Below, one piece after another: positions 2,121-55,835 of a DNA stretch of 64,000 nucleotides. The first letter of the stretch is position 1; the number at the start of each line of letters is the position of its first letter. Both the position numbers and the translations under genes were made by a program. The stretch comes from Thermoanaerobaculia bacterium (GTDB taxonomy: Bacteria; Acidobacteriota; Thermoanaerobaculia; Gp7-AA8): NCBI GenBank assembly GCA_035999335.1, contig DASYGV010000086.1, positions 66,991 through 130,990 on the forward strand, in the 5' to 3' direction. The notes under the pieces are model-generated. The model was not told the DNA's origin and searched no databases. It was given only the letters and a program-made list of their open reading frames with translations.

Positions 2121-2186
2121 GTCGGCTTCTACTGGGGCGCGGGCATCTTGCCCGCGCGCGGGCGGGCAGGATGCCCGCCCCCCTTA

Positions 2187-2948
2187 CTACTTGAGTCCCT
2201 GCTCCAGATGCTCGTACGCCTGCTGCAGGTTGTCGCTGCGCGACTTCACCTCGGCGAACGCATCGCGCCAGATCAGACCGACGCGCTGGATATTGCGCTC
2301 GCGGAGTCCGAACAGCACTTCGCGGAGCGCGTCGGCTTCGGCGCCCGAGAGGTCGGGACGCGCGACCTCGCGCTCGAGCAGCGACTGCGCGAGGCGGAGA
2401 TGCTCCTCATCACTCGGCGCTTGCGCGGTTGGCGCGGTCATGGCCGGGATCTTCATCGTCGTCGGACGGTCGGCCGTGATCTCACGCTGCAGGCCCGGCT
2501 GCGTGCCGCCCATGTCCACCGCGCCCGGGAGCTCCTTGAGCTGCGGACTGAACTTGCCCATCATGAAGAACAGCTCTTTCTCGTTGGCGAAGTTGCCGAC
2601 GAGACGCGCGCTCTTCGCGAGCTCGAGGTGCTCTGACTCCTGGAGCATGATGAACGCGCGGGCGCGGTCCTCGAGAGCGATGCGCTTGGCGTGGACCTTC
2701 CACGCGGTGAGCGTGCCCTGGATGAAGCACGCTTGGCCGGCGCGGATGCTCACCGCTTCGACCGTGACGTTCTCCTCGATGCGGATCGAGCCGTTGGTCG
2801 ACTCGATCTCGGAGTAAATCCCCGAGTTCTGGATGACGAGATTTCCTGGGGTTTTGATGGAGAGTTGTCCGTGCGCGTTGACCCGAATCTCGGTCCCGCG
2901 CGGGATGATCATCGTCGGGAAATTTGCCTGATCTGCGGCTGCACTCAT
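2187..2948 (-). CDS. bactofilin-like polymer-forming cytoskeletal protein with extended C-terminus
   Basis: The real start is MSAAADQ; the upstream Arg-rich part of the 619-aa ORF is discarded. Repetitive beta-helix-like segments (GTEIRVNAHGQLSIKT, GIYSEIESTNGSIRIEENVTVEA) are typical of the bactofilin DUF583 core. Its ATG overlaps the stop of the upstream M23 peptidase (ATGA). Confidence 0.5.
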   Translation of the reverse strand: MSAAADQANFPTMIIPRGTEIRVNAHGQLSIKTPGNLVIQNSGIYSEIESTNGSIRIEENVTVEAVSIRAGQACFIQGTLTAWKVHAKRIALEDRARAFIMLQESEHLELAKSARLVGNFANEKELFFMMGKFSPQLKELPGAVDMGGTQPGLQREITADRPTTMKIPAMTAPTAQAPSDEEHLRLAQSLLEREVARPDLSGAEADALREVLFGLRERNIQRVGLIWRDAFAEVKSRSDNLQQAYEHLEQGLK

Positions 2949-4000
2949 CACGACCTCCTCTTCCCACCCATAACACTCCCACCACTCGCAGCGCCCACGA
3001 AGGCCGACGGCAGCGGTTCGAAGTTCCTGTAGTCCTTGCTCGTGCGCGCGCGCATGAGCAGCAGGGCTTCGTTGCTCCACTGATAATTGAGGATGTAGAT
3101 GCGCGGATCGATCGGGACGTACGTCCCGGGCTGTTCGAGATCGCTGCGGATCTCGTAGTGCAGGTGAGCGTTCGTGCTCCAGCCGGTGTTGCCCACCGTG
3201 GCGATCACCTCGCCCTGCTGCACTCTCTGGCCAGCTCTGACTCGAACCGTGTCGCAGTGCGCGTAGATCGTGACGAAGCGGTCCGCGTGCTTGATCGTGA
3301 CGACGTTGCCGAAGCGCCACCAGGCGACGCTCTGCCGGATCGGATAGCGTCCCGCGAACGTGACCACGCCGTCGGCCGTCGCGTAGACCGCGGTGCCGGT
3401 CGGCGCGGAGAGGTCGAGTCCCTTGTGAAAGTCGGTCGCGCGCGTGAACGGCGAGACCCGATTGCCGAACGGCGAGGTCAGGACGAAGCGATCGTCGGGA
3501 ACCGGCAGGATCGACGGCGTGTGCCGGACGAGCTCGCGGTTCGCGGCCTCGTAGGCGGCCAGGACGTCGAGCTGCTGCTGCAGCCGGCGCATCGCGTTCT
3601 TCAGCGAGATTTCGCGGCGGCGGGCATCGTCGAGCGGCACGTCGGCGATGCGGTTGGGCGTGGAGAAACCGCCCTGGCCGAGGGTGCGGTCGAGACCGTA
3701 GACGGTGATGAGCTTCTCGACGCGGATGCGATGCTCTTCCAGGCTGCGCTCGAGGGAAGTCATCTGGACGACGTTCTCGCGCAATCGCTCGCGCTGGATG
3801 CCGCGCTCCTGGCGCTGCTGGTAGAGGTAGTTCGTCTTGTAAACGCGGCGGATGACCGTCGGCGCGGCGGCCATCGATCCGATCAAACCCGCGAGCACGA
3901 ACGACAGGACGATCAGTCCCACAACCACCCGGCGGCGGTCCAGAAAAAAGTACCGCACACGCCGGCGGATGTCGCTCGGATGGATCTGAATTTCGATCAT
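2948..4000 (-). CDS. M23-family metallopeptidase (LytM/peptidoglycan endopeptidase-like) with N-terminal TM and coiled-coil region
   Basis: HKGLDL...TIYAHCD...GNTGWSTNAHLHYEI are the canonical M23 Zn-binding motifs (HxxxD, HxH). An N-terminal TM helix is followed by a coiled coil. Confidence 0.85.
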   Translation of the reverse strand: MIEIQIHPSDIRRRVRYFFLDRRRVVVGLIVLSFVLAGLIGSMAAAPTVIRRVYKTNYLYQQRQERGIQRERLRENVVQMTSLERSLEEHRIRVEKLITVYGLDRTLGQGGFSTPNRIADVPLDDARRREISLKNAMRRLQQQLDVLAAYEAANRELVRHTPSILPVPDDRFVLTSPFGNRVSPFTRATDFHKGLDLSAPTGTAVYATADGVVTFAGRYPIRQSVAWWRFGNVVTIKHADRFVTIYAHCDTVRVRAGQRVQQGEVIATVGNTGWSTNAHLHYEIRSDLEQPGTYVPIDPRIYILNYQWSNEALLLMRARTSKDYRNFEPLPSAFVGAASGGSVMGGKRRS

Positions 4001-4074
4001 GGCACGAACCCGCGCGGGCCAACGCGCGGGTCAGGCAGTTTAGCACAGGGAAATGTGCACAGGAATCGGTGCAG

Positions 4075-4165
4075 CGGAGCGCCGGGCTTCCAGCCGGCCG
4101 CTACGCCGCCTTCCAGGCGGCCGGCAGGGATGCCGGCGGAGCGGCCGGCTGGAAGCCGGCGCGCC
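4075..4165. repeat. about 90-bp palindromic intergenic element (REP/MITE-like), copy 1
   Basis: Arms ggcttccagccggccgct ... agcggccggctggaagcc are reverse complements. A near-identical copy lies at 18680-18790. Confidence 0.7.
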
Positions 4166-4173
4166 TTTGTGCC

Positions 4174-4255
4174 TACTCGACAGGCACGGTGCGCTTGGTG
4201 AATCGCTTGACCACCAGCGGCAGCAGCGTGATCGCGAGCATCAGCGCGTTCATCG
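4174..4255 (-). pseudogene. orphan duplicate of a dedA-family gene 3' end (27 codons, MNALMLAITLLPLVVKRFTKRTVPVE*)
   Basis: About 85% nucleotide identity to 5445-5500, the true dedA 3' end (…CALMLAITLLPLAVKRFTKREAPVVE*). Its ATG overlaps the stop of the TIR gene (ATGA). Confidence 0.5.
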
Positions 4256-4912
4256 ATAGACCCTGGCCCTCTGTTCTTCGATCAACTGCAATTTGATGGC
4301 GGCGGCGTCGATTTCTGACGCAATCAGAGCGGCGATTGCCGGCTCAATGCCGGGTTCAACTACGCGTCGCCAGTATTTCTCGAGCCAGACTGGCGGCTCC
4401 ACCGGTTCCTCCAAGAGGACATACACCGACGCGTGCTGTGGATCGCCGTAATTGTGAATGACGGATGCGATGAACGCCTCTGCCTGGCAGATTGCGCTCC
4501 GCAGGCTATTCGATGAGATCAAGAACAGCACTGCTGAACATCGACGAATAGTGGCCTCGATTCGCTCACTGGCTCCTGGAAAATCGCGCTGGAAGCCTCG
4601 GATTTGATCGATGACGTCGGTGTCTCTGTTGTACGTGTGCTCCTCGGACTCGTCGTTGGGGGTGTAACGCCACGGTTCGAGGCCAGCCGCGCGAAACGCT
4701 TCTTCGAAGGCGCTCGCTCTCTCGAACGACTCACGAGGAAATGAGAGAAACACCCGTCGACCGAACTTCGGTCCCTCTAGGTAGTCGGCGCGTGCGGGGT
4801 CATCGGCTTTGTACAGGAATCCGTTGATCTTTCCGTCTGAATCTTTCCGTGTCGATGACCACACGAATCGGATTGCCTCGATCCAGCCCATAAGCCATCG
4901 TATTGGGTTCAC
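4252..4912 (-). CDS. TIR-domain protein
   Basis: RRVFLSFPRES (box1-like VFLSY), AVLFLISSNSLRSAICQAE and ASVYVLLEEP(V)E match the TIR / TIR-like flavodoxin-fold pattern. The gene lies in a lower-GC (about 55%) segment. Confidence 0.55.
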
Positions 4913-5016
4913 AACGGCAGCTTACGCGGGCCGCGTAGTTCCAAGCCACGTTCCTCCGCCTCGACGAAGCCAAACCCGGCGCCACGGAACCGAAATTGGC
5001 TGCAACCGAGCCAGAT

Positions 5017-5400
5017 TTAGCTCCGCAGATGCGATCGGCCGGGTCGAGAAAGCGATTGATCTCTTCGACCAAGAGAGCTTTCTCTTCGACCAAGAAAGCT
5101 TTCTCTTCGATCAAAGAGATCCTTCCCTTCGATCAAGAGATCTTTCTCTTCGACCAAGAGAGCCTTCCCTTCGACCAAGAGATCTTTCCCTTCGACCAAG
5201 AGATCTTTCCCTTCGATCAAGAGATCTTTCCCTTCGATCAAGAGATCTTTCTCTTCGGGCAAGAGATCTTTATCTTCGTCAAAGAGATCTTTCTCTTCGT
5301 CAAAGGGATCGATCTTTTCATCGAAGAGATCGATGGCTTCGTCTCGGACCCCGTTTTCTTCCTGAAAGAGGTAGGAAAGTTGATCTTTCTCTTCGGGCAC
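5017..5400 (-). CDS. acidic heptad-repeat protein (…LLIEGKD LLVEGKD… x about 10), hypothetical
   Basis: The minus-strand frame through the 21-bp array gives a clean (EGKDLLV)n heptad repeat. It is co-oriented with, and immediately upstream of, the TIR gene, and starts 22 bp after the dedA stop. The plus-strand frames (FDQEIFP / RDLSLRS repeats) are less protein-like. Coding status is uncertain. Confidence 0.3.
   Translation of the reverse strand: MPEEKDQLSYLFQEENGVRDEAIDLFDEKIDPFDEEKDLFDEDKDLLPEEKDLLIEGKDLLIEGKDLLVEGKDLLVEGKALLVEEKDLLIEGKDLFDRRESFLGRRESSLGRRDQSLSRPGRSHLRS
5067..5340. repeat. 21-bp tandem repeat array, about 13 copies (consensus ttcgaccaagagatctttccc)
   Basis: Directly visible head-to-tail units with point variants. 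The period is 21 bp, which equals 7 codons and about two helical turns. Confidence 0.9.
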
Positions 5401-5421
5401 GAGATCGACGAGGGTGGCCGC

Positions 5422-6111
5422 TTATTCGACGACGGGCGCTTCGCGTTTCGTGAATCGCTTGACGGCCAGCGGGAGAAGCGTAATCGCGAGCATGAGCGCG
5501 CACACGATCAGCAGCCGCTTCGCGGCGTCCCCCTCGGTCATCGAGCCATTGAACAGCGCGTCCGCGGAGTAAGCGAAGACGAAGATCGACGGGATCACGC
5601 CGACGAACGTCGACAAGAAGAAGTCGCGCACGCGCACGCCCGCGACACCCGCGCCGTAGTTGAGGACCGCGAACGGAATGCCGGGGATGAAGCGGAGCGC
5701 GAGGAGCGAGCCGAAGCTCGCGTGATCGACCTGCTTCGCGACCGCGCGGCCGACGCGGCCGAATTTCTCGAGCATCCCCTCCCCCACGAAACGCCCGAGG
5801 TAGAACGACGCGAGCGCGCCGAGGATGCCGCCGACGATCGAGTAGACGCTGCCGAGGAGCCATCCCCAGATGAAGCCCGCCGCCAGGATGAACAGCGACG
5901 CCGGCAAGGCGAACACGCACGCGAGCACGAACGCGCCGATGAAGATCGCCGGGCCGTACCAGACGCCGCGCAAATGCTCGACGAACAGGCGCACGTTTTC
6001 GCGCGTGATGTGCTCGCGCGCAGGCGAGAAATAGATCGCCACGACGGCTGCCGCGAGCAGCACGAAGATCGCGATCTTGACGAGCGTGCGGCGCGACAAC
6101 GTTCGCAACAT
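5422..6111 (-). CDS. DedA / SNARE-associated (TVP38/TMEM64) family membrane protein
   Basis: Start MLRTLS (upstream Arg-rich extension trimmed). It is multi-TM, with a GxxxG-rich G(I/V)PxxxxNYxAG DedA signature in ALRFIPGIPFAVLNYGAGVAGV. Confidence 0.8.
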   Translation of the reverse strand: MLRTLSRRTLVKIAIFVLLAAAVVAIYFSPAREHITRENVRLFVEHLRGVWYGPAIFIGAFVLACVFALPASLFILAAGFIWGWLLGSVYSIVGGILGALASFYLGRFVGEGMLEKFGRVGRAVAKQVDHASFGSLLALRFIPGIPFAVLNYGAGVAGVRVRDFFLSTFVGVIPSIFVFAYSADALFNGSMTEGDAAKRLLIVCALMLAITLLPLAVKRFTKREAPVVE

Positions 6112-6355
6112 CAGGGCAGCACCTGGACCTGCGTGCCGAGACCGTACGTCCGCAACACCACGCGGAAGGCGGTCTCGCACGGCACTTCGCGGAAGTAGAA
6201 CGTCGCCGCGGTTTTGGACTTGTCCACGTCCGGATCGAGGATCAGGTTTTTGATCCCGCACTGCTTCTGCATCTCCCGAAGCACGACGCGAGGCTCGGCG
6301 TCCTTGAGGTCGAGCGTCACCGTGCGCGCGGAGACCACGGCGGCGAGAATCAGCG
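6111..6355 (-). CDS. small exported protein with secretin-N0/STN-like motif
   Basis: GTG start 6 bp after the thiolase stop, with a hydrophobic N-terminus (ILSLILAAVVSA). LDLKDAEPRVVLREMQKQCGIKNLILDPDVDKSKTAATFYFREVPCETAFRVVLRTYGLG resembles the PilQ N0 / STN consensus (F.DADLRDVLR.LAE.SGLNIV..P.V.GKVTL.L.NVPWDQAL). Confidence 0.35.
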
Positions 6356-6361
6356 AAAGGA

Positions 6362-7540
<1,179 letters not shown>

Positions 7541-7595
7541 GTTTGTAGTGCTCCTTTTGCCGCGTCTCCAAACGCGGCGCGGGGGGATGATATTC

Positions 7596-7690
7596 GGGCT
7601 GAAGAGTCGCAAAGTCGCAAAGTCTCAAAGTCGCAAAGAGGGCGGGTCCGACGGCCTTTGCGACTTTGCGACTTTGAGACTTTGCGACTC
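7596..7690. repeat. 35-bp-stem palindrome built from tandem 8-mers (gtcgcaaa x4 / tttgcgac x4)
   Basis: gagtcgcaaagtcgcaaagtctcaaagtcgcaaag - loop - ctttgcgactttgcgactttgagactttgcgactc. It overlaps the last codons of the CPBP protease gene (…ESQSLKVAKSQRP…). Confidence 0.85.
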
Positions 7691-8452
7691 CGCCGGCTCC
7701 CAACGCCGCAGCCACAGGATGCCGGCGACCTCGGCCACCGTCATCCAGATGCTCCCTTCGATGCCGAACTCCCCTCCGGTCAACCACCACGGGCCTTGGC
7801 CGCGCTCGACGAAGACCGTGGCCATCGCGTCGTAGCCGCTGACCTCGTGTCCGAGGATCGGACCGGACATCACGTTCCACGCGAGATGCAGCCCGATCGG
7901 GAGCCACAGACGCCCGTACTTCTCGTACGCGAGCCCAAGCAGAACGCCGCCGAGGAACACGTTCGTGAGGCCGATCCACGACACGGCCGCGTTGCCCGCG
8001 TGAAGCGCCGCGAAGACGAGGGCGACGAACAACAGTGCGAAGCCGCGGTGCCAGCGATGGAGTTTCTGGAATGCATAGCCGCGGAACAACAACTCCTCGT
8101 GGACCGCCGCCGGGAGAAAGACCATGAAGATCTCGAGCCACGGGAATCCAGCGCCGCGCTCGTGCGAAAGGTCCGTCGAGAGGATGACTAGGGCCGCGCA
8201 CATGCTGATCAGGACGACTCCGAACGCGGTGCCGTAGAGAAACTCCGGCACGGCGAGACGTGGCGAGACGAAGAGGCCGAGCGGCCAACGTCCGCGATCC
8301 CAGATCGCGACGGTTGCCGCGGTGGCGACGCCGACGGAGAGGAGTGCCATCCAATGGACGAACGGAAAACGAAGCCACGACAAAACGATGAGTGTGGCAA
8401 CATAGAAACAAACGAACAATGCAAGCGGTGCCACAACGCGGTCGAGCGCGGC
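7625..8452 (-). CDS. CPBP-family intramembrane glutamic endopeptidase (CAAX protease-like)
   Basis: EELLFRG, FxxxH and HxxxN motifs in a multi-TM protein. The start is uncertain; a GTG near 8452 is proposed after trimming an Arg-rich extension. Confidence 0.7.
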   Translation of the reverse strand, partial: AALDRVVAPLALFVCFYVATLIVLSWLRFPFVHWMALLSVGVATAATVAIWDRGRWPLGLFVSPRLAVPEFLYGTAFGVVLISMCAALVILSTDLSHERGAGFPWLEIFMVFLPAAVHEELLFRGYAFQKLHRWHRGFALLFVALVFAALHAGNAAVSWIGLTNVFLGGVLLGLAYEKYGRLWLPIGLHLAWNVMSGPILGHEVSGYDAMATVFVERGQGPWWLTGGEFGIEGSIWMTVAEVAGILWLRRWEPAESQSLKVAKSQRPSDPPSLRL

Positions 8453-8476
8453 CACGCGCTGCTTGAAGGAGGCCGC

Positions 8477-8953
8477 ATGAACAGGATCGCCGCCGACGTC
8501 GCCGCGCTGCTGTTGCGCGTCGTCGCGGGATTGATCTTCCTTCCCCACGGCTGGTCGAAGATCGCCGGCGAGGGAGGCTCCACCGCGTTCGCCGCCGGAT
8601 TGGCCGAGGGCTACGGCATTCCGCTGTTCCTCGGACACCTCGCGGCGTACGTCGAGGTCATCGGCTCCGTCCTGCTCCTCCTCGGATTGCTCACCCGTCT
8701 CGATGCGCTCCTCCTGGCCGGCACGATGTTCGTGGCGGCCTTCGTGGTCCAGCTTCCCGATGCGTTGTTCGAGGTCCCGCCGAATGCTATCAAGGCTTTC
8801 GCGGTCATTCGCGGGATCGAGACCCCGCTCGCGATGTTCGCGATCTGCTGCGCGCTCGTGCTCACCGGCGGCGGGCGCTTCTCGCTCGATTCCGTGCTGC
8901 GGAATCGGTTCGGCAAAAAGAAAACGGCGGCCGAAGCCGCCGCTGTCACGTAG
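8477..8953 (+). CDS. DoxX-family membrane protein
   Basis: Start MNRIAADVAALLLRVVAGLIFLPHGWSKI. This is the typical DoxX pattern (LR..LG..F...G..K; E..G..LLLLGL.TR). Confidence 0.75.
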   Translation: MNRIAADVAALLLRVVAGLIFLPHGWSKIAGEGGSTAFAAGLAEGYGIPLFLGHLAAYVEVIGSVLLLLGLLTRLDALLLAGTMFVAAFVVQLPDALFEVPPNAIKAFAVIRGIETPLAMFAICCALVLTGGGRFSLDSVLRNRFGKKKTAAEAAAVT

Positions 8954-8975
8954 GACGGGCTTCAGCCCGTCTCCG

Positions 8976-9413
8976 TTACTGCCCGATCGCCGCGGCCGCG
9001 CCGCCCGCCATCGGGTCTTCGACGATGATGCCGATGTTCTTCGCGCCGCTGGCGCGGGCGAGATCGAGGAACTTCATCGTCGCCTCGTAGTCGACATCGC
9101 GTCCGCCCGAGAAGAACACCATCTTGGAAGAGTTCCCGCGAAGGATCTCGCGGATCCGGTTGGGGAACTGCTCCATCGTCATCTCTTCCTTGTTGATCAG
9201 CACACGCGGACCCGCGATGAGACGCAGGACGATCTGGTCCTGCACCGCGGACGGCGGGATGCCGGGCGGCGCTTTGGGCGGAACCTTCACGAGATAGCCC
9301 ATCTGAATGACCGGCGTGAGGACCATGAAGATGATCAGGAGCACGAGAACAACGTCCACCAACGGTGTGACGTTGATCTCCGACCGCATCGAACCACTGC
9401 CACCTACTTGCAT
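8976..9413 (-). CDS. exbD: biopolymer transport protein ExbD/TolR
   Basis: Diagnostic ExbD N-terminus (INVTPLVDVVLVLLIIFMV); about 145 aa. Confidence 0.85.
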   Translation of the reverse strand: MQVGGSGSMRSEINVTPLVDVVLVLLIIFMVLTPVIQMGYLVKVPPKAPPGIPPSAVQDQIVLRLIAGPRVLINKEEMTMEQFPNRIREILRGNSSKMVFFSGGRDVDYEATMKFLDLARASGAKNIGIIVEDPMAGGAAAAIGQ

Positions 9414-9417
9414 GGGA

Positions 9418-9873
9418 CTATGCTCCCTCTCCCGGGGATTTCTTCGGCTGCGAGATCAGCCCGACATCGTTGAAGCCAACTTCGCGGCAGGCCTTGAGCA
9501 CGTCGAGCACGTCGCCGTATTTCACTTGGCGGTCGCCCTTGACCGCGATCTCACGATCCGGCGTACGCTCGAAGATCTCCTTGAGCGACGATTCGACCTG
9601 GTCCTTGCGGACGACGTTCGGTCCAAGATAGACCGAGCCGTCCGCCTTCACCGAGATCTGAAGCTGCTTCTCGGTGTCCGGCGTCTTCTCCGGATCTTCC
9701 GTGACCGGAAGGTTCACGGGCACGCCCTTCTGCAGCATTGGCGTGACGACCATGAAGATGATCAGAAGCACCAGGCAGACGTCGACCAGCGGCGTGACGT
9801 TGATATCCGAAGTCAGCGCCGCGTGGCTCAGTTTCTGGAGCGAGCTACCCGGCAGCTTTTTCATCGCCGACAC
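9418..9873 (-). CDS. exbD: biopolymer transport protein ExbD/TolR (second copy)
   Basis: Diagnostic INVTPLVDVCLVLLIIFMV motif; about 151 aa. Confidence 0.85.
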   Translation of the reverse strand: MSAMKKLPGSSLQKLSHAALTSDINVTPLVDVCLVLLIIFMVVTPMLQKGVPVNLPVTEDPEKTPDTEKQLQISVKADGSVYLGPNVVRKDQVESSLKEIFERTPDREIAVKGDRQVKYGDVLDVLKACREVGFNDVGLISQPKKSPGEGA

Positions 9874-10531
9874 CCACTTCCTTCATGAAGTAGATCGCCA
9901 TCTCCGAACCGGAATTGGACATCTCGACGGTGAAGCGGTCGACGCGGTTCTGGAAATAGTTGTAAGCCCATACCGCGGGGATGGCCACGAGGAGGCCGCC
10001 GGCAGTCGTGAACAGCGCTTCGGCGATACCGGCGGAGACCGAGGCGATACCGCCGCCGCCCTTGGCCATGCCGGTGAAGGCGTTGATGATGCCGATGACC
10101 GTTCCGAACAGTCCGACGAATGGCGCGGTTGCACCGATGGTCGCGAGAACGCCGAGGTTTTCCTTCAACTCCGCTACCGTGATCATGGCCGTGCGGTCCA
10201 TGCCCTGGCGCGCGGCCTCGACGGCGAGCTCCATGTCCGTGATGCGCTTGTCGCGGCGCGAGGCCTCGAACTCGAGCAGACCGGCGGCGATGACCTTCGC
10301 CAGGTGGCTCTGCTTGTACTTCTTGGTGACTTCGATGGCCTGGGCATAGTCGCCCTTGGTCAGCAGGTTCGAGAGCGCGCCGAGCAGTTTCAGCGACTGG
10401 TTCTTCGCCTTCGAAAAGGTGAGGTACCGCTCGACCATGACCCACAGCGAGTAGATCGACATTACCGCCATGATGCCGATGACGATAAAGCCGGCGACCG
10501 TCATCTCTTTAAACATGTGTGCCAAATCCAT
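9845..10531 (-). CDS. exbB: MotA/TolQ/ExbB proton channel
   Basis: Three TM helices and the conserved GLLGTVIGIINAF/ASGIAEALFTTAGGL-type motifs. The 3' end overlaps the exbD start. Confidence 0.9.
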   Translation of the reverse strand: MDLAHMFKEMTVAGFIVIGIMAVMSIYSLWVMVERYLTFSKAKNQSLKLLGALSNLLTKGDYAQAIEVTKKYKQSHLAKVIAAGLLEFEASRRDKRITDMELAVEAARQGMDRTAMITVAELKENLGVLATIGATAPFVGLFGTVIGIINAFTGMAKGGGGIASVSAGIAEALFTTAGGLLVAIPAVWAYNYFQNRVDRFTVEMSNSGSEMAIYFMKEVGVGDEKAAG

Positions 10532-16244: not shown

Positions 16245-16261
16245 TTGTCGCTCCCTCCTTC

Positions 16262-16340
16262 AGGGCGCAGGGCGCAGGGCGCAGGGCGCAGAAGCTGACG
16301 GCTCTTCTGCGCCCTGCGCCCTGTCCCCTGTGCCCTGCTC
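16262..16340. repeat. heptamer-built palindrome (gggcgca units)
   Basis: cagggcgcagggcgcagggcgcagggcgcagaag - loop - cttctgcgccctgcgccctgtcccctgtgccctg. A related copy lies at 39985-40040. Confidence 0.85.
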
Positions 16341-16389
16341 CGTGTACCACTGGCCACCGCCAACTGGCAACCCGTAAAATCCGCGCACG

Positions 16390-18670: not shown

Positions 18671-19746
18671 AGGCCCCGCGGAGCGCCGGCTTCCAGCCGG
18701 CCGCTCCGCCGCCTTCCAGGCGGCCCGGTTCTCGCGACAACCGCCGGCAAGATGCCGGCGTAGCGGCCGGCTGGAAGCCGGCGCTCCGCGGGGCTGCCGC
18801 GGTCCTGTTCACCATCCTTCTCCTCGCCCTCTCCGGCGCCGCGTTCGGCCACTCCCCTCGCGAGCTCCTCAGCATCCTCATCACCGGCTCGGTCGGAAGC
18901 ACGTTCGCGCTGCAGGGCACGCTCCTCAAGTCCGTGCCGCTGCTCCTCACGGGACTGAGCGTCGTCATCGCCTTCCGCGCTGGCGTGTGGAACATCGGCG
19001 GCGAGGGACAGTTCATCGTCGGCGCGCTCGCCGCGCTGCTCGCGTCGCGTTTCGGACTCGTCCCATCGCTTCTCGCGGCGATGCTCGCCGGCGCCGCGTG
19101 GGCGTCGATCGCATCGCTGATGCGTCTCTGGCGCAATGCGCCCGAGGTACTGACGACGATCCTTCTCAACTTCATTGCCATCCATCTCCTCGGGTGGTGC
19201 GTGAATGGCCCATTGCGCGAACGCACCGCGATGTATCCGCAAACCGATGTCGCGCTTGCGACGCTGCCGCGACTCGGCGGCCTGTTCAGCGGACTGCATA
19301 TGGGCATCCTTCTCGCCGTTCTTGCGAGTGTCGGCGCGTGGTGGCTGCTGTATCGAACGAACGAAGGACTGCGTCTCCGCGCGACCGGCTTCAACTCTTC
19401 CGCGGCGAAGTGGGCGGGTGTGAACGTGCGGGCGCAGCTCGTGCGGGCGATGGCAATTTCCGGCGCCGCCGCCGGACTCGCAGGGGGCATCGAGCTCCTC
19501 GGCGTCACGAATCGACTGTTCGAGCGCTTCGCCGCCGGCTACGGCTACTCCGGCATCGCAGTGGCACTGCTGGCGCAACTCCATCCGCTCGCAACGATCG
19601 GCTCGGCGTTCTTTTTCGGCGCGCTCGTCACCGGCGCGGGCGAGCTGCAACGCACCGCGAACATCTCCGCGGCGGTTGCGACGTTGGGCCAGGCTGTCGT
19701 GATTCTCGTGCTCATTGGGTTCGAATATGCTCGATCTCGTCGTTAG
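18667..19746 (+). CDS. ABC transporter permease (BMP-system)
   Basis: GTG at 18667 overlaps the ATPase stop (GTGA). The multi-TM permease region runs from about 18800. The first about 40 codons are encoded by the REP-like element, so the true start could be an internal non-ATG codon. Confidence 0.7.
   Translation: MKAPRSAGFQPAAPPPSRRPGSRDNRRQDAGVAAGWKPALRGAAAVLFTILLLALSGAAFGHSPRELLSILITGSVGSTFALQGTLLKSVPLLLTGLSVVIAFRAGVWNIGGEGQFIVGALAALLASRFGLVPSLLAAMLAGAAWASIASLMRLWRNAPEVLTTILLNFIAIHLLGWCVNGPLRERTAMYPQTDVALATLPRLGGLFSGLHMGILLAVLASVGAWWLLYRTNEGLRLRATGFNSSAAKWAGVNVRAQLVRAMAISGAAAGLAGGIELLGVTNRLFERFAAGYGYSGIAVALLAQLHPLATIGSAFFFGALVTGAGELQRTANISAAVATLGQAVVILVLIGFEYARSRR
18680..18790. repeat. 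about 90-110-bp palindromic element (REP/MITE-like), copy 2, lying inside the 5' coding region of the permease gene
   Basis: Same arms as 4075-4165 (cttccagccggccgc…gcggccggctggaag), with a 26-bp extra insert in the loop. Confidence 0.7.
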
Positions 19747-39963: not shown

Positions 39964-39984
39964 GATCAGAGCGCGGAGGGCAAG

Positions 39985-40040
39985 GCGCAGGGCGCAGGAG
40001 AAAACGCTTCTGCGCCCTGTCCCCTGCGCCCTGCGCCCAG
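39985..40040. repeat. heptamer-built palindrome (ggcgcag units), relative of 16262-16340
   Basis: ggcaaggcgcagggcgcaggagaaaacgcttctgcgccctgtcccctgcgccctgcgccc. Confidence 0.8.
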
Positions 40041-41054: not shown

Positions 41055-41099
41055 GTCATGAGGGGTGCCAGGATTCACGACGTGAAGTGAGGTTTTCTC

Positions 41100-41215
41100 C
41101 GCGAAGCCTCTGTGTCCTCTGTGTCCCGGTGGTGAATCGGTCTCTTCATCCCGCGAGGGACATAGGAACTCACCACAGAGCCACCGAGCACACAGAGGCT
41201 TCGCGGAGAAAAGCT
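41100..41215. repeat. long imperfect palindrome (gcgaagcctctgtgtcctctgtgtcccggtggtga … tcaccacagagccaccgagcacacagaggcttcgc)
   Basis: About 35-bp arms with ctctgtgt units. It marks the left edge of the accessory segment. Confidence 0.8.
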
Positions 41216-41299
41216 CTTTCGCGTCCGGGGTAACCGCTGCGTTAGCCGGCCGGATCGCGAAGCGTAGCAATGTTGCGCCGACCGCCTGACAACCGCGGG

Positions 41300-49904: not shown

Positions 49905-49980
49905 CACAGTGATGAGTGATGAGTGATGAGTGATGAGTGGCAGAGCGCCGTTCAGCACTCATCACTCATCACTCATCACT
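49905..49980. repeat. heptamer-built palindrome (gtgatga x4 / tcatcac x4)
   Basis: cagtgatgagtgatgagtgatgagtgatgagtgg - loop - cactcatcactcatcactcatcac. Confidence 0.85.
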
Positions 49981-50380: not shown

Positions 50381-52311
50381 CTACTCCTCTTCCTCGTCTT
50401 CGTCTTCCGAGTGCGCGGCGCCGGCCGGCGAGAACGAGCTCTCCGCCCAACGACGCGATTCGAACACCGCCTGCCGGATCACCGCAAAGAACGGAATGAT
50501 GCTGATCGCGATCAGCGCCAGCACGAAATGCAGTCCGCGGAACACGCCTTCGCGCACACGGATGTGCACCTGCGAGGGCGGACTCTTTCCGCCTTCCCAG
50601 TGCGCTTCGACGCGCAGCACGTGCGGTCCCTTCTTCGGAGCGGAGAGGAACATCCTCCGCGTGTGCTTTCCTTCACTCCAGCTCTCGCCGCCATCCACTC
50701 CGCTGTAGTACTCCAGCGGGATCTCGAACGACTTCAACCGCCCGTCGCTCTCATCGACGAGGTCGACGCCGAGATGGAGCCAGTTGTTTTGGAGAGGCGA
50801 GCTCGCGCGCACTTCGACGTTGTGTCTGCCCGTGAGCTCGAACGGTTGCGTGAAAAACACGCGCGCGGCCTCGACGTTCCAGTCGGGCGCGGCGACAGCG
50901 CCGAGATCGAACATCTGATCGACGAGCAGGCGCTGGGGCCGCGTCATCGAAATGAAAACCGCCGCCACGAACAGCAGCGCCAGCATCGCCAGCCACGCGA
51001 GGCCGAGTCGCGCGCCCGAATACGGCTGGATCGGTCCGACTCCCGAGGGGCGGACGAGCTTCTCGATGCCGAACGCCTGCTCGACCTCGCGAGGCTCCAT
51101 GTAACGCGCGTGCGAGTAGCTGATCTCCTGCGCGCCTTCGCGCGTCAGCTCCTTCGAGATCCCGAACGGCGGGGCAACGTAGTCGACCGTGTCGACCTGC
51201 TCCCCCACCGCCACCTTCCAGTAGAACTCTCCGAGGACGTGCGTCACGCGCGCGAGCGCGGTCTGGAAGACTTTGTACGTGCGGCCGTCGTACTTCACCG
51301 TCTTCGCCGCGCCGCGCGGACTCACGTCGTCGACGTCGCCCGGACGCAGCGGCGTCACGAAGCTCCAGTGATCGTCGCTGTGCACGAGCCAGCGATAACT
51401 CTTCTCGCGGTTGTAGAGGAGATATTCGGTCCAGAAGTAATCGCGGTCGAAGCGCACCGCGCGCTCCATGAAACCCGCGACGACGTATGCGTCGCCGTCG
51501 ATGGTGCCAGTGGAACCGAGAGGGATCACCGGTTGCGTCTTCGACGGCTTCAGCTTCTGGAAGAACTGCAGCTTCCCGTCCGCGATGTCGTGACCCGCGC
51601 CGCAGTACGGACACCAGATGCGCTCCGCCCGATCGGGCGCGCGCAGCTCGAGCGCGCCGCCGCACTGCGAGCAGTTGAGGGTGGTCAGCTTCGCGCGCGC
51701 TTCACGCCGCGCCTCGCCGCCCTCGATCTGCAGCGCGTCGAGCGGGACTTCCTCTCCCTTGAAAACGACCGCGGGCTCTTCGCTGTAGTCGATGGTCGCG
51801 AACTTCCGTTCGGCCCCGCTGAGGTCCGCGTACTCGTAGCGCGCGCCGGCGTTCGGCGTCCAGGGCAGTTCGCCTTCGGCGGAGATCAGCGCGGCTTCGC
51901 CGATCTCGGCGACGACGAGGCTGTCGAGCACGCGGTCGCCGACGCGCAACGCGTCGAACGGAGGCGCCTCCTGCGCAACCTTGAACGTGACGTAGAACCT
52001 CCCCTGCGCCTCGGCCAGCCACGCCCAACGTCCGTCATCGAGCGCCGCGTACCACTCGTCCCACACGCCGCCGGCCTGATGGCGGAGCTGCGTTCTTCCG
52101 GTGATCCGGAAGGACTGGCGGCGGTACTTCCCGCTTGCGCCGACGCGCAGCGGCGAGCCGGTGTCGATGAGCGCCGCGACCTTGCCGTGGTCTTCGATAC
52201 CGCGATCGGTGCGCGCCACGATCGAGCGGCAGGACGAGCACACCACGACCTCGGACGATCCGATCGCAAACTCGATCTGCGCACCGCAGGACGGGCAGTT
52301 CGCCGTCGTCA
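50381..52311 (-). CDS. DUF4178-domain protein (two tandem zinc-ribbon + DUF4178 modules, a TM helix, and an acidic C-terminal tail)
   Basis: CPSCGAQIEF…CSSC…GRTQLRHQAGGVWDEWY…DGRWAWL, repeated as CSQCGGALE…CPYCGA…W.EY.L…YRWL. Start trimmed to a GTG near 52311. Confidence 0.6.
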
Positions 52312-52653
52312 CCGTCCGCGCTCCACCTTGCGCACGCGCACGTCCCGCGCGCCGAGGAGCGCGGCCAGACGCTCCTCCCACGGCCAGTCGGGACGCGGGC
52401 GACAGCAATAGAGATTGATGGTGGCGATCCCGTGCTCGGGATAGGTGTGACACGCGAGGTGCGACTCCGTGAGCATCACGAAGCCGGTGACGCCGGCGTG
52501 CCCCGGAAAGACGTGCCACGCGGGCGCGTGCAGCGGCTGCAGGTTCAGCTCGCCGATGACGCTGGCGAAGAGGCCGCCGAGGACTTCGACGTCCCGCAAC
52601 GAGTCCGCATCACACCCGCCAGCCTCGACCAGCCACTCTGCACCGATTTCCAT
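52309..52653 (-). CDS. speH: S-adenosylmethionine decarboxylase proenzyme (small, SpeH-type)
   Basis: AGVTGFVMLTESHLACHTYPEHGIATINLYCC contains the ES (serine) autoprocessing site and the PE..G/TCG-like motifs of class-1 AdoMetDC. Confidence 0.8.
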   Translation of the reverse strand: MEIGAEWLVEAGGCDADSLRDVEVLGGLFASVIGELNLQPLHAPAWHVFPGHAGVTGFVMLTESHLACHTYPEHGIATINLYCCRPRPDWPWEERLAALLGARDVRVRKVERGR

Positions 52654-52686
52654 GGGCGGGGGAAAGGATACAAGATTCATTCAGTT

Positions 52687-52793
52687 TATCCCGCGCGTAG
52701 ACGCGGGATCTCCGGTCATCCCGGCAGAGACTGCTGCCATGGCACGGATCGTCGCGAGGGCACCGGAGATCCCGCGTCTACGCGCGGGATAAA
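52687..52793. repeat. 31-bp perfect inverted repeat pair with 44-bp spacer in divergent promoter region
   Basis: ttatcccgcgcgtagacgcgggatctccggt … accggagatcccgcgtctacgcgcgggataa. Confidence 0.85.
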
Positions 52794-52847
52794 CTACAGG
52801 TCGATTTCCACGTACTATTGCTCGTCACACGGAGGTCACATACAGCC

Positions 52848-53972
52848 ATGGGACTTTGGGACGCAATCAAGAACGAGTTCATCCAGATCATCGAGTGGCT
52901 CGATGACAGCAACAACACCCTGGTCTACCGGTTCCCGGTGCACGAGCAGGAGATCAAGATGGGCGCGCAGCTCACCGTGCGCGAGAACCAGGTCGCCATC
53001 TTCATCAACGAAGGGCAGGTGGCGGACCTCTTCAAGCCCGGCCGCTACGAGCTCTCCACGCAGAACATGCCCATCATGACGACGCTGCGGAGCTGGAAGT
53101 ACGGCTTCGACTCGCCGTTCAAGGCCGAGGTCTACTTCTTCAACACGCGGCTGTTCACGGATCTGAAGTGGGGCACGTCGAACCCGGTGATGATGCGCGA
53201 CGCCGAGTTCGGGATGATCCGCATGCGGGCGTTCGGAACATACGCGATCCGCATCGCCGACGCGAAGGAGTTCTTCAAAACCGTCGTCGGCACGCAGGGT
53301 CTCACGACCACCGAAGACATCCTCGTGCAGCTCCGCTCGACGATCATCAGCCATCTGTCCGACATCATCGCGGAGTCGAAGATCGCGGCGCTGGATCTCG
53401 CGTCCAGCTACCGCGAGCTGTCGACTCTCGCGCAAAAGGAGCTCGCGCCGTCGTTCACCACATTCGGGCTCGAGCTCGCGCGCTTCAACATCGACAACGT
53501 CTCGCTCCCCGAGGAAGTGGAAGCCGCGATCGACCAGCGCACGAAGCTCGGCGTCCTCGGCGACCGCATGAGTCAGTACACGCAGATGCAGGCCGCGGAC
53601 TCGATCAAGATCGCGGCGGCGAACGAAGGCGGTATCGCCGGCGCGGGCGTCGGCCTCGGCGCGGGCGTGGCGATGGGTCAAGCGATGAGTGGAGCGTTCA
53701 ACGCGCCTCCGCCGCCGCAGGGCGCGTCCGCGCCTCCGCCTCCTCCGGGTGGTGCGGCGAACGCGCCACGCTGGTCGATCGCGATCGACGGCAAGACGTA
53801 CGGCCCCTACACGGATGACGCGCTGAAGACGATGGTCCAAAGCGGACAGGTCGCCGCTTCGACACAGGCCTGGCGCCCTGGCGCCAGCGGCTGGGCGTCG
53901 CTCGACACGTATTCGGAGCTGGGCCTCGGCGGCGGAAGCGCGATGCCGCCACCACCGCCACCACCGAAGTAG
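52848..53972 (+). CDS. SPFH/Band-7 family protein (Band_7_1, YdjI-like) with C-terminal DUF4339 (GYF-like) domain and poly-Pro linker
   Basis: The N-terminal 260 aa match the virion-core-like SPFH family. The C-terminus WSIAIDGKTYGPYTDDALKTMVQSGQVAASTQAWRPGASGWASL is DUF4339-like. Confidence 0.75.
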   Translation: MGLWDAIKNEFIQIIEWLDDSNNTLVYRFPVHEQEIKMGAQLTVRENQVAIFINEGQVADLFKPGRYELSTQNMPIMTTLRSWKYGFDSPFKAEVYFFNTRLFTDLKWGTSNPVMMRDAEFGMIRMRAFGTYAIRIADAKEFFKTVVGTQGLTTTEDILVQLRSTIISHLSDIIAESKIAALDLASSYRELSTLAQKELAPSFTTFGLELARFNIDNVSLPEEVEAAIDQRTKLGVLGDRMSQYTQMQAADSIKIAAANEGGIAGAGVGLGAGVAMGQAMSGAFNAPPPPQGASAPPPPPGGAANAPRWSIAIDGKTYGPYTDDALKTMVQSGQVAASTQAWRPGASGWASLDTYSELGLGGGSAMPPPPPPPK

Positions 53973-53974
53973 TT

Positions 53975-54050
53975 CGACGTTGCGAGTTGCGAGTTGCGAG
54001 CGCCTCTTGGCGTTTCGCGCTCGCAACTCGTAACCCGCAACTCGCAAGAT
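53975..54050. repeat. heptamer-built palindrome (gttgcga units)
   Basis: gttgcgagttgcgagttgcgagcgcctcttggcgtttcgcgctcgcaactcgtaacccgcaactcgcaa. Confidence 0.85.
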
Positions 54051-55128
54051 GTCTGCAGAAGCCATCCAGTCCAAGGTCCGCAAGTTCCCCTGCGAAGGCT
54101 GCGGTGCGGACCTCGCGTGGGAGCCAGGCATCACCGCGCTCAAGTGCCCGTGGTGCGGCATGTCGAAAGACGTCGCACCGGCCGGCGGTACCGTCGACGA
54201 GAAATCCGTCGATGCCGGTCTCCGCGCGCCGCGCAACCTCGGATGGGGCGCGGAGCGCAAGGTCATCGCCTGCAAGCGCTGCGGCGCGCACACGACACTC
54301 GATCCTCACGTGGCCGCGAGCGCGTGCGCGTTCTGCGGCACGAACGCGGTCGTCGAAGCGCCGCCGGACAAGACCATCGCGCGTCCCGAGGGACTCCTGC
54401 CGTTCCGCATCACTCGCGAGTCGGCGCTGCAATCGTTCCGCGCCTGGCTGCACAAGCTGTGGCTCCGTCCCAATGACCTCAAACGCTCCGCGCGGATGAA
54501 CGTCATCCAGGGCGCGTACATCCCCTTCTGGACCTTCGATGCCGCAACGCATTCGAGTTGGACCGCCGAAGCGGGTTACTACTACTACGTCGACGTGAAT
54601 TCCGGAGGACAACGGCGGCGCGAACGCCGCATCCGATGGGAGCCCGCCTCCGGATCGCTGGAGCATTTCTTCGACGACGTGCCCATCCCAGCATCGCGCG
54701 GCATCGACTCGTCGCTCACCCGCGGGATCGAGCCGTTTCCCACCGCCGAGCTCACGCCTTACCAGCCGTCGTACCTTTCGGGATTCCTCGCCGAAGAGAA
54801 CGCGGTCGACTTGCCGGAGGCGCTCGAGAGCGCGAAGGACCGGATGCGCGACGAGCTTCGCTACATGTGCTCGCGGCGCGTCCCCGGCGACACGCAGCGC
54901 AACCTCGTCGTGCACACCGTCTTCTCCGCCCTCGCGTACAAAAACTGCCTCCTCCCGATCTGGGTCGCCGCCTACGACTACCACGGCAAGCCCTACCGCT
55001 TCCTCGTGAACGGCGTCACCGGCAAATGCCACGGCACCGCGCCCTGGTCGTGGGTGAAGATCACGCTGCTGGTGATGACGATCCTGACGATCGCGATGGT
55101 CGTGCTGTGGGCGATGGGACAGGCGTGA
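54049..55128 (+). CDS. zinc-ribbon membrane-anchored protein (YdjG-like partner of the SPFH protein)
   Basis: CEGCGA…CPWCG and CKRCGA…CAFCG double zinc ribbons; a C-terminal TM helix (ITLLVMTILTIAMVVLWAM). Confidence 0.5.
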   Translation: MSAEAIQSKVRKFPCEGCGADLAWEPGITALKCPWCGMSKDVAPAGGTVDEKSVDAGLRAPRNLGWGAERKVIACKRCGAHTTLDPHVAASACAFCGTNAVVEAPPDKTIARPEGLLPFRITRESALQSFRAWLHKLWLRPNDLKRSARMNVIQGAYIPFWTFDAATHSSWTAEAGYYYYVDVNSGGQRRRERRIRWEPASGSLEHFFDDVPIPASRGIDSSLTRGIEPFPTAELTPYQPSYLSGFLAEENAVDLPEALESAKDRMRDELRYMCSRRVPGDTQRNLVVHTVFSALAYKNCLLPIWVAAYDYHGKPYRFLVNGVTGKCHGTAPWSWVKITLLVMTILTIAMVVLWAMGQA

Positions 55129-55835
55129 AGAAGTTGCAACTCGCATCCGTCCGCAAAGACCTCCGTACCGCCGCCAACCCCGAACACGCCAAAGTCGCAC
55201 AATCCTTCTTCAAAACCGCCCCCGGCCAATATGGCGAAGGCGATCGCTTTCTCGGCATTCGCGTTCCTGTATTACGAACGTTCGTGCGAAAACACGAAAC
55301 GCTTTCATTGCAAGACATTGAGACCCTTCTCGACTCTCCATGGCACGAGGAGCGGATCGTCGCGTTGCTGATTCTCGTCCGACGCTATGAGCGCGGCGAC
55401 GATACCGATCGCGCTGCCATTTACGACCTCTATCTGCGCAAGACGGAACGCATCAATAACTGGGATCTGGTCGACTGCTCCGCGCCGCAGATCGTCGGCG
55501 CGCATCTGCGCGATCGCGACCGCGCCCCTCTGTACGCTCTCGCCAAATCGAGCTCATTGTGGGAACGGCGGATTGCGATGATCGCGACGCAGCACTTCAT
55601 CCGCCGAGGCGATTTCCGCGACGCGCTGGCCATCGCCGCGCTCCTGCTCGACGACCGCCACGACCTCATTCACAAAGCGGCCGGCTGGATGCTCCGCGAG
55701 GTCGGGAATCGGGATCGAGAAGCCGAGGAGAGGTTCCTGCGGAAACACGCCGCGCGCATGCCGCGCACCATGCTCCGTTACGCAATCGAGAAATTTCCCG
55801 CCACATTGCGCAGGACGTATCTCGAAATACGTTGA
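55127..55835 (+). CDS. DNA alkylation repair enzyme (AlkD/AlkC-like HEAT-repeat glycosylase family)
   Basis: GTG start overlapping the previous stop (GTGA). …WHEERIVALLIL…NNWDLVD…LWERRIAMIATQHFIRRG matches the AlkD-family HEAT-like repeats. Confidence 0.65.

Follow-up and report, generated by a model that had tools for sequence, protein, structure and literature searches.

A YdjI/YdjG-like gene pair and an adjoining REPIN-like repeat in a Thermoanaerobaculia genome: two probably unrelated features of one locus

Organization of the locus

The DNA analyzed here (the window, 64,000 nt) belongs to a Thermoanaerobaculia bacterium of the phylum Acidobacteriota (assembly GCA_035999335.1, contig DASYGV010000086.1, positions 66,991 to 130,990 of the forward strand). 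The region of interest comprises, from left to right, the start of a minus-strand polyamine operon, a perfect inverted repeat of 113 bp (52683-52795) and two plus-strand genes, gene 1 (52848-53972) and gene 2 (54049-55128), which encode an SPFH protein and a zinc-ribbon protein, respectively. An earlier description made from the letters alone, hereafter the original prediction, compared the two genes with ydjI and ydjG of the Bacillus subtilis pspA-ydjGHI (pspA-samGHI) operon, and proposed that the repeat is either an operator shared with the polyamine genes or a miniature inverted-repeat transposable element (MITE). We consider it probable that two unrelated things adjoin at this locus, namely a conserved two-gene membrane module homologous to the SamI/SamG part of PspA-SamGHI, and one copy of a dispersed repeat resembling the doublets of repetitive extragenic palindromic (REP) sequences known as REPINs.

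The region between the two transcription units had been given as 160 bp. It is indeed divergent, but its length is 167 bp, or 194 bp when speH, the S-adenosylmethionine (AdoMet) decarboxylase gene that opens the polyamine operon (52309-52653, minus strand; Pfam AdoMet_dc, 9.8e-23), is taken to start at the ATG at 52653. This is the most likely start, since gene callers use this ATG (114 aa) and an upstream GTATCCTyTCCC...ATG block is conserved in a relative, and the repeat begins, at its left end, 29 nt away from it.

Gene 2 encodes a homolog of YdjG

The 359-aa product of gene 2 is homologous to B. subtilis YdjG (SamG) over its full length, with 26% identity between its residues 10-350 and residues 2-337 of YdjG (BLASTP, 2e-39), and a profile-profile comparison of the two families by hhalign gave 100% probability over 313 columns (E 2.6e-53). 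A database search with a YdjG sequence as query returned B. subtilis proteins at 99-100% identity. The reference protein, P0390, was identified as YdjG because it is encoded in an operon of the order PspA_IM30, YdjG, TPM_phosphatase, Band_7_1, and because its ends match the ydjG primers printed in PMC8581546.

As originally predicted, gene 2 encodes two zinc ribbons, built from four CxxC pairs (C15/C18...C33/C36 and C75/C78...C93/C96), and a C-terminal hydrophobic helix (aa 335-357, nt 55051-55119) that aligns with the C-terminal segment of YdjG. The eight cysteines are invariant in alignments of 71 and 75 sequences, and in the family, whose members are nearly all full length, about ten other positions are equally invariant; the matches of the zinc ribbons to Pfam and PDB entries are weak. 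Between the ribbons and the helix lies an alpha+beta body (aa ~120-330), for which no family was found in Pfam, NCBIfam or PADLOC, nor any resembling solved structure. For the middle domain of the YdjG family an NTF2-like fold related to YpeB has been described (Ravi et al. 2024, PMC11237479). An AlphaFold2 model based on a diverse alignment (pLDDT 87.6, pTM 0.81) displays two small zinc ribbons, two units made of a helix and a long beta-sheet, and a terminal helix at 335-358 (pLDDT >90 there), while a shallow alignment of sequences at 72-87% identity gave a pLDDT of only 52. The zinc ribbons are N-terminal and the sole hydrophobic helix forms the very C-terminus, an arrangement for which the simplest reading is a tail-anchored protein, predicted to lie mostly in the cytoplasm.

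Gene 1 encodes an SPFH protein with a GYF_2 tail

The 374-aa product of gene 1 is a YdjI/SamI-like protein in which a Band_7_1 domain (PF13421; aa 26-235, nt 52923-53552) matches profile positions 1-210 of 211 at 1.1e-92 and a GYF_2 domain, formerly named DUF4339, occupies aa 309-358 (nt 53772-53921) at 6.9e-13. The SPFH domain, proline tract and GYF-like C-terminus that had been read from the letters are all present. The similarity to B. subtilis YdjI (BLASTP, 4e-35) covers aa 7-264, i.e. the SPFH domain and the linker, which is Gly/Ala-rich and proline-rich; proline tracts flank GYF_2 on both sides, the C-terminal one being PPPPPPPK. The sequence shows the Gly/Ala-rich linker but no long hydrophobic helix, and the protein appears to be soluble. 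The same architecture is found in orthologs, and a PADLOC search gave no defence-system link for gene 1 or gene 2.

With gene 1 resembling YdjI and gene 2 aligning with the verified YdjG over its full length, the pair is of the YdjI-like and YdjG-like kind that the original prediction had named. The likeness to pspA-ydjGHI extends to several features: gene 2 has the two zinc ribbons, the body and, as predicted, the C-terminal membrane segment of YdjG, gene 1 shares Band_7_1 and a low-complexity linker with YdjI, both of them without a membrane segment, and the SPFH and YdjG-like genes are neighbours in both organisms. In contrast to the Bacillus operon, in which the order is anchor, TPM and SPFH, here the SPFH gene precedes that of the anchor, pspA and the TPM-domain gene ydjH are missing, and the host is a didermic Acidobacterium. 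The tails of the SPFH proteins also differ, since the C-terminal zinc finger of the YdjI type was not found in gene 1, which ends in GYF_2 and polyproline instead.

A second point of comparison is offered by modules combining zinc ribbons and GYF domains, such as GltJ of Myxococcus xanthus (PMC11135422), to which the GYF region of gene 1 has a weak NCBIfam match. GYF_2 and zinc ribbons at the cytoplasmic face of the membrane, a location that is predicted here, are common to both, and the GYF domain of GltJ binds a proline-rich sequence; here, however, GYF and zinc ribbons are distributed over two proteins, the proline tracts lie in the GYF protein itself and the context is not one of gliding motility.

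The pair is conserved across phyla, with neither PspA nor a TPM protein nearby

A survey of 80 GTDB species representatives carrying a YdjG-like gene revealed a Band_7_1 gene upstream on the same strand in 58 loci from five or more phyla, with a gap below 300 nt in 45 of them. A further six have a more distant and divergent SPFH gene, 11 have none with at least 2 kb of upstream sequence at hand, and the arrangement could not be assigned in five. Carriers of the family include Acidobacteriota, Verrucomicrobiota (Akkermansia muciniphila), Bacteroidota, Planctomycetota and Beta- and Gammaproteobacteria (Comamonas testosteroni, Tahibacter). A Band_7_1 gene is also upstream in the loci L080, L081, L083, L084, L086 and L088, and the combination of Band_7_1 and GYF_2 directly before a YdjG-like gene was found in four Acidobacterial relatives, in an unrelated genome (36% identity) and in a metagenome-assembled genome (MAG) of the Planctomycetes. 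YdjG-like homologs standing alone occur in Bernardetia and Hydrogenedentes.

Searches with tblastn and phmmer covered the 64-kb window and 89 related loci. No PspA homolog was found in the window, where the best phmmer E was 0.47, nor in the 89 loci, while the control, B. subtilis PspA against an unverified E. coli PspA sequence, gave 1e-19; the original prediction that the window lacks a PspA/IM30 gene thus holds locally. Likewise, no homolog of B. subtilis YdjH was obtained at E<1 in the window and the 89 loci, and both PspA_IM30 and TPM_phosphatase are absent from the Pfam-annotated neighbourhoods. Given that pairing with Band_7_1 is widespread and that PspA and YdjH/TPM were not found nearby, the pair can be regarded as a reduced form of the pspA-ydjGHI system that lacks PspA and the TPM protein.

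The tail of the SPFH partner varies. Among the 59 same-strand partners, the window gene included, 41 end in HTH_17, seven in GYF_2 and a few in zinc ribbons or SHOCT. HTH_17 is an excisionase-type DNA-binding tail (L095, L099, L103, L128, L137, L147 and 35 more), and an SPFH scaffold with a DNA-binding tail was unexpected.

No conserved third gene is found between the members of the pair, and such inserts as occur are lineage-specific and mutually unrelated. In Casimicrobiaceae (Betaproteobacteria) a secreted DUF4019 protein of ~144 aa is encoded inside the pair (L094 653-1087, L098 9430-9864, L109 9501-9938), and in L081 a Cys-rich protein of 148 aa. A gene for an IS200/RAYT-like Y1 transposase (RAYT, REP-associated tyrosine transposase), with the motifs HVHIL and WQNGYG identified by eye, separates the SPFH and YdjG-like genes in a Verrucomicrobiota MAG (L144 9313-9768).

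Expression signals around the pair

The two genes had been called GTGA-adjacent, but a spacer of 76 nt lies between them, and the GTGA overlap joins the stop of gene 2 to the next gene, a DNA_alkylation repair gene (55125-55835). This overlap is also found in L083 and L092 and not in L080, L081 and L084, which points to a lineage-specific passenger. The spacer holds a plus-strand hairpin (53979-54047) formed by GTTGCGA heptamers and their complement, with 92% complementarity, -46.8 kcal/mol and no T-tail; a scan for sigma-70 promoters and terminators, which yielded nothing useful, did not call it as an intrinsic terminator. Each of the orthologous spacers of L083, L084, L090 and L091 has a strong hairpin of unrelated sequence, and L080 has almost no spacer. 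Where present, these hairpins suggest selection for structure that uncouples the abundance of the two products, and the one in the window may set a higher ratio of SPFH protein to anchor. In Bacillus, a terminator is located between pspA and ydjG (PMC8581546).

Upstream of gene 1, whose GGAGG ribosome-binding site is at 52831-52835, a promoter-like block spans 52792-52818 on the plus strand and consists of AAC (52792-52794), 16 nt and CGTACTAT (52811-52818). In seven of seven close orthologs ATTCCACGT is invariant upstream of the SPFH start while the surrounding spacer has diverged, and all seven have AAC-N16-CGT(A/T) at a fixed position, with AAC exactly 16 nt before CGT, a pattern with a background rate of 2.9% per 153-nt window. 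The consensus of sigma-W, on which pspA-ydjGHI depends, is TGAAAC-N16-CGTA. No sigma-W is known for the Acidobacterial host. The AAC-N16-CGT block fits a putative promoter of the extracytoplasmic function (ECF) type, and a reading with a TAnnAT -10 box is also allowed. The AAC triplet is made up of the last bases of the right arm of the repeat, so that insertion of the repeat would have preserved or replaced the upstream box, and the right end of the repeat may supply it. The motif is absent with the pair in other phyla, where TAGAAT-type -10 boxes are common, and a promoter of speH could not be located.

The inverted repeat is a dispersed element

The repeat, which is not assigned to a strand, consists of a left arm (52683-52716, 34 nt), a spacer (52717-52761, 45 nt) and a right arm (52762-52795, 34 nt), with ends that read AGTTTAT.../...ATAAACT. 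It had been described with arms of 31 bp and a spacer of 44 bp. The perfect complementarity, beyond what is expected by chance, was correctly seen, since the 31-mer occurs in only two places of the window (52686-52716 and 52762-52792) and gave 0 matches in shuffles, but the arms are 100% complementary over 34 nt and the sizes change accordingly. Each arm contains an inner hairpin with an 8-bp stem, ATCCCGCG-N6-CGCGGGAT, and folding of the entire repeat gives, for both strands, a single long hairpin at about -88 kcal/mol (z = -11.6).

The perfect symmetry of the repeat, its position in a divergent intergenic region and the palindrome within each arm, which could suit a dimer, are the features that speak for a shared operator, at which a dimeric regulator would co-regulate the polyamine operon and the SPFH/YdjG pair. 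However, a scan of JGI metagenome contigs for exact matches to the 24-nt core of the arm retrieved 75 stretches with unrelated flanks, many of them from different contigs of the same soil samples, and such dispersed copies had been named beforehand as the finding that distinguishes a mobile element from an operator. Moreover, even with 7-8 mismatches allowed, the repeat is absent both from all the orthologous loci checked (L080-L084 and L090-L092, in relatives whose proteins are 73-83% identical) and from 1.44 Mb of sequence surrounding homologous pairs in other genomes; the orthologous loci keep the promoter-like block without the repeat, and the adjacency of speH and the SPFH gene is itself not conserved. 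With the arm core in at least 75 unrelated settings, the operator reading fails, and we regard it as hardly credible.

The metagenome copies have a common anatomy, in which AGTTTATCCCGCGCGTAGACGCGGGATCTCCGGT is followed by a variable spacer and the reverse complement, with sharp ends and wholly unrelated surrounding genes; lone arms, truncated copies and one tandem array are found as well. Among the copies were 48 distinct doublets (median 112 bp, close to the 113 bp of the window copy) and 30 unpaired arms. Variation in the arm is concentrated at two positions, 16, which falls in the inner hairpin's loop, and 31. The copies are flanked by gene starts in 32 cases and by gene ends in 44, often only a few bases away.

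The original alternative of a MITE comes closer as regards mobility and is doubtful as regards class. Inverted repeats at the termini, a length of ~110 bp and many dispersed copies with sharp ends would suit a classical MITE, the deletion derivative of an insertion sequence with a DDE transposase, terminal inverted repeats and target-site duplications. Yet no such duplication of 2-9 bp was found at the true ends, where 2-mers matched in 1/48 doublets, the level of chance, and 3-9-mers in 0/48, and the 'TA' seen at inner offsets belongs to the conserved palindrome. In addition, unpaired arms occur often (30, compared with 48 doublets), as REP singlets do, and each arm is itself a hairpin, as in REPs. 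A classical MITE is hence unlikely, and the lack of target-site duplication makes a REP/REPIN-like element the better fit.

REP doublets and REPINs (PMC3116915, PMC3733652) share with the repeat palindromic units arranged as inverted doublets, spacers that here fall mostly in the published range of 20-100 bp, the possibility of one long hairpin, extragenic dispersal, the occurrence of singlets and the lack of target-site duplication. From these copies we read the repeat as a putative REPIN-like mobile, dispersed extragenic repeat of soil Acidobacteria rather than a locus-specific operator, which appears to have been inserted between the gene pair and the speH operon in this lineage only. Rfam held no family above threshold for the repeat, and sub-threshold look-alikes of miRNA precursors, obtained for the two hairpins, were rejected as long-stem artefacts.

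The repeat might also act mainly at the RNA level, as a leader hairpin or a transcript-end insulator that determines how stable the speH-operon mRNA is or how well it is translated, or that prevents read-through between the divergent units. Its hairpin of -88 kcal/mol can form on either strand and, with the left end 29 nt from the speH start codon, an mRNA starting inside or beyond the repeat would carry part or all of it; copies elsewhere lie tight against gene starts and ends, and REP dimers are reported to affect mRNA stability (PMC3733652). Against this, the arm mismatches of other copies yield G-U pairs on one strand at one position and on the opposite strand at another, so that neither strand is favoured for an RNA role. 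We regard a mainly RNA-level role as possible, although we lean against it, and as a side effect it would be compatible with a mobile element, not an alternative origin for the repeat.

The polyamine operon as a neighbour

The minus-strand operon comprises genes for AdoMet decarboxylase, a zinc-ribbon/DUF4178 protein, a DUF350 protein, a spermine synthase with a membrane domain and an amine oxidase. The DUF4178 protein (50381-52519, minus strand) is unusually long, with 643-712 aa depending on the start. Its C-terminus is acidic, and it contains two DUF4178 stretches as well as zinc-ribbon-like matches at about residues 73-103 and 274-314. The region matching it in L083 is split into two genes.

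Co-regulation of this module with the gene pair had been suggested from their divergent arrangement, but the adjacency is lineage-specific. The direct divergent adjacency of speH and the SPFH gene was found only in the window's own population, and in relatives at 73-79% identity either the upstream gene is Peptidase_S46 or YebC, or the polyamine operon follows downstream in convergent orientation. In L083 a Peptidase_S46 gene (6703-8742) separates speH from the SPFH gene; in L084 (223-2286) and L090 (121-2178) Peptidase_S46 is likewise upstream of the SPFH gene. L080 has YebC upstream, and in L081 and L091 the polyamine operon is downstream and convergent. L081 (6183-8234) and L091 (6621-8639) also encode Peptidase_S46. 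A divergent gene for this peptidase typically lies upstream of the SPFH gene in Thermoanaerobaculia, but the window lacks it and has the repeat in its place.

The operon has the set of genes described for PspA-linked polyamine operons (PMC11237479), i.e. spermine/spermidine synthase, DUF350, DUF4178, AdoMet decarboxylase and amine oxidase, but lacks the CesT/Tir-PspA dyad, and the Band-7 protein, here a combination of Band_7_1 and GYF_2, is encoded in a separate divergent unit whose adjacency is not conserved. Since Ravi et al. (2024, PMC11237479) report polyamine operons with a Band-7 protein in place of the CesT/Tir-PspA dyad, the pair could be functionally coupled to the polyamine module and replace PspA in a polyamine-linked membrane-stress system. 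In line with such coupling, the operon lies 0-6 kb from the pair in four Thermoanaerobaculia loci (the window, L083, L081 and L091), in different arrangements. Nevertheless, L080 has no polyamine genes within +/-10 kb, and outside Thermoanaerobaculia the module was found in no surveyed locus, save for a lone marginal DUF4178 match in L161. Position and orientation vary, unrelated genes (S46 peptidase, toxin-antitoxin/HEPN) intervene, and the published Band-7 variant has a different architecture (Band-7, 2TM and SHOCT). Such functional coupling, with the pair replacing PspA, is therefore quite improbable, although the report of Ravi et al. leaves room for a looser link. Because the adjacency is not kept in relatives and the module was not seen outside the clade, it is regional synteny within one clade and not conserved functional coupling.

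A model for the gene pair

B. subtilis YdjI is a soluble protein whose localization at the membrane depends on YdjG and YdjH, and SamI restrains SamGH signalling (PMC8581546; bioRxiv 10.64898/2026.02.06.704340). Based on these observations and on the architecture of both proteins, we hypothesize that the tail-anchored double-zinc-ribbon protein would tether the Band_7_1 SPFH protein, in itself soluble, to the inner membrane on its cytoplasmic side, where the SPFH protein may oligomerise and organise or restrain membrane clients. Binding to a proline-rich sequence has been described for one bacterial GYF domain, and GYF is frequently found together with zinc ribbons (PMC11135422). GYF_2 with its flanking polyproline might hence be a swappable protein-protein adaptor, its place being taken by HTH_17, zinc ribbons or SHOCT elsewhere, and could engage proline-rich ligands, possibly including the tracts in its own linker and C-terminus.

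Several observations weigh against the interpretation of the locus as a conserved membrane module beside a REPIN-like element. Direct anchoring of the SPFH protein by the YdjG-like protein would be an extrapolation, because the two-hybrid contacts of YdjI in B. subtilis are with YdjH (PMC8581546), which is missing here. In 11 of the 80 surveyed loci the YdjG-like gene has no nearby SPFH gene. In L092, which at 83% identity is the closest of the GTDB representatives, ~9.3 kb (727-10000) of unrelated genes separate the two members of the pair, among them those for a carboxylesterase, a cadherin-like protein, a MIP channel and a low-molecular-weight phosphatase; this split and the lone homologs indicate that the two proteins can be encoded apart. 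The absence of PspA applies to the window and the loci, and a pspA gene may lie elsewhere in the genome. The promoter reading is based on a motif common to related genomes only. As for the repeat, its tetranucleotide tag, GTAG (CTAC/CGTC on the other arm), is located in the 6-nt loop of the inner hairpin and not at the end of the unit, where REPs have it, and a tblastn search with an IS200/RAYT-like protein gave no match in the window and ~0.6 Mb of further sequence (L001-L084, mostly element-bearing); soil Acidobacteria, besides, are outside the characterised REPIN hosts. Because of the position of the tag and the RAYT result we call the repeat REPIN-like and not a proven REPIN, even though the metagenome copies display palindromic units, inverted doublets and dispersal.

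Studies of YdjG/SamG and YdjI/SamI have so far been confined to Bacillus, where they were treated as accessories of PspA. The body domain of YdjG defines a very large family without a Pfam model, with 7282 cluster representatives (50% identity) at E<=1e-3 and 954 at <=1e-30. Outside Firmicutes its usual companion is a Band_7_1 SPFH gene, while a PspA or TPM partner is missing. Therefore, the SPFH-anchor pair may be the core unit and PspA a lineage-specific client. It is conceivable, if rather doubtful, that the Band_7_1/YdjG-like pair is an autonomous, PspA-independent membrane-surveillance module, widespread in didermic phyla, in which the SPFH tail would be the output device, with HTH_17 forms routing the state of the membrane to transcription by release or sequestering of the DNA-binding domain, and that the REPIN-like element of the window has been co-opted as a promoter box. 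On the side of the repeat, the locus illustrates that even a conspicuous, perfect palindrome located in a divergent promoter region may be mobile rather than regulatory. With it, soil Acidobacteria gain a REPIN-like family, a type of element that is ordinary in itself and new for this host lineage.

Other repeats in the window

The window contains further inverted repeats. Intergenic hairpins made of three to four tandem units of 7-8 nt and their reverse complement are found at 7604-7690, 16261-16344, 39971-40036 and 49908-49980, besides the intercistronic one at 53979-54047; the unit differs by site (AGTCGCAA, CAGGGCG, AGTGATG, GTTGCGA), the folding energies range from -47 to -75 kcal/mol and a T-tail is missing. 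At 41089-41216 there is an inverted repeat of 47 nt, 87% complementary, with a 34-nt spacer and -87 kcal/mol. The hairpins at 4085-4157 and 18673-18794 (-78 and -120 kcal/mol) have the motif GGCTTCCAGCCGGCCGC in common, and appear to represent another REP-like family of this genome, unrelated to the first.

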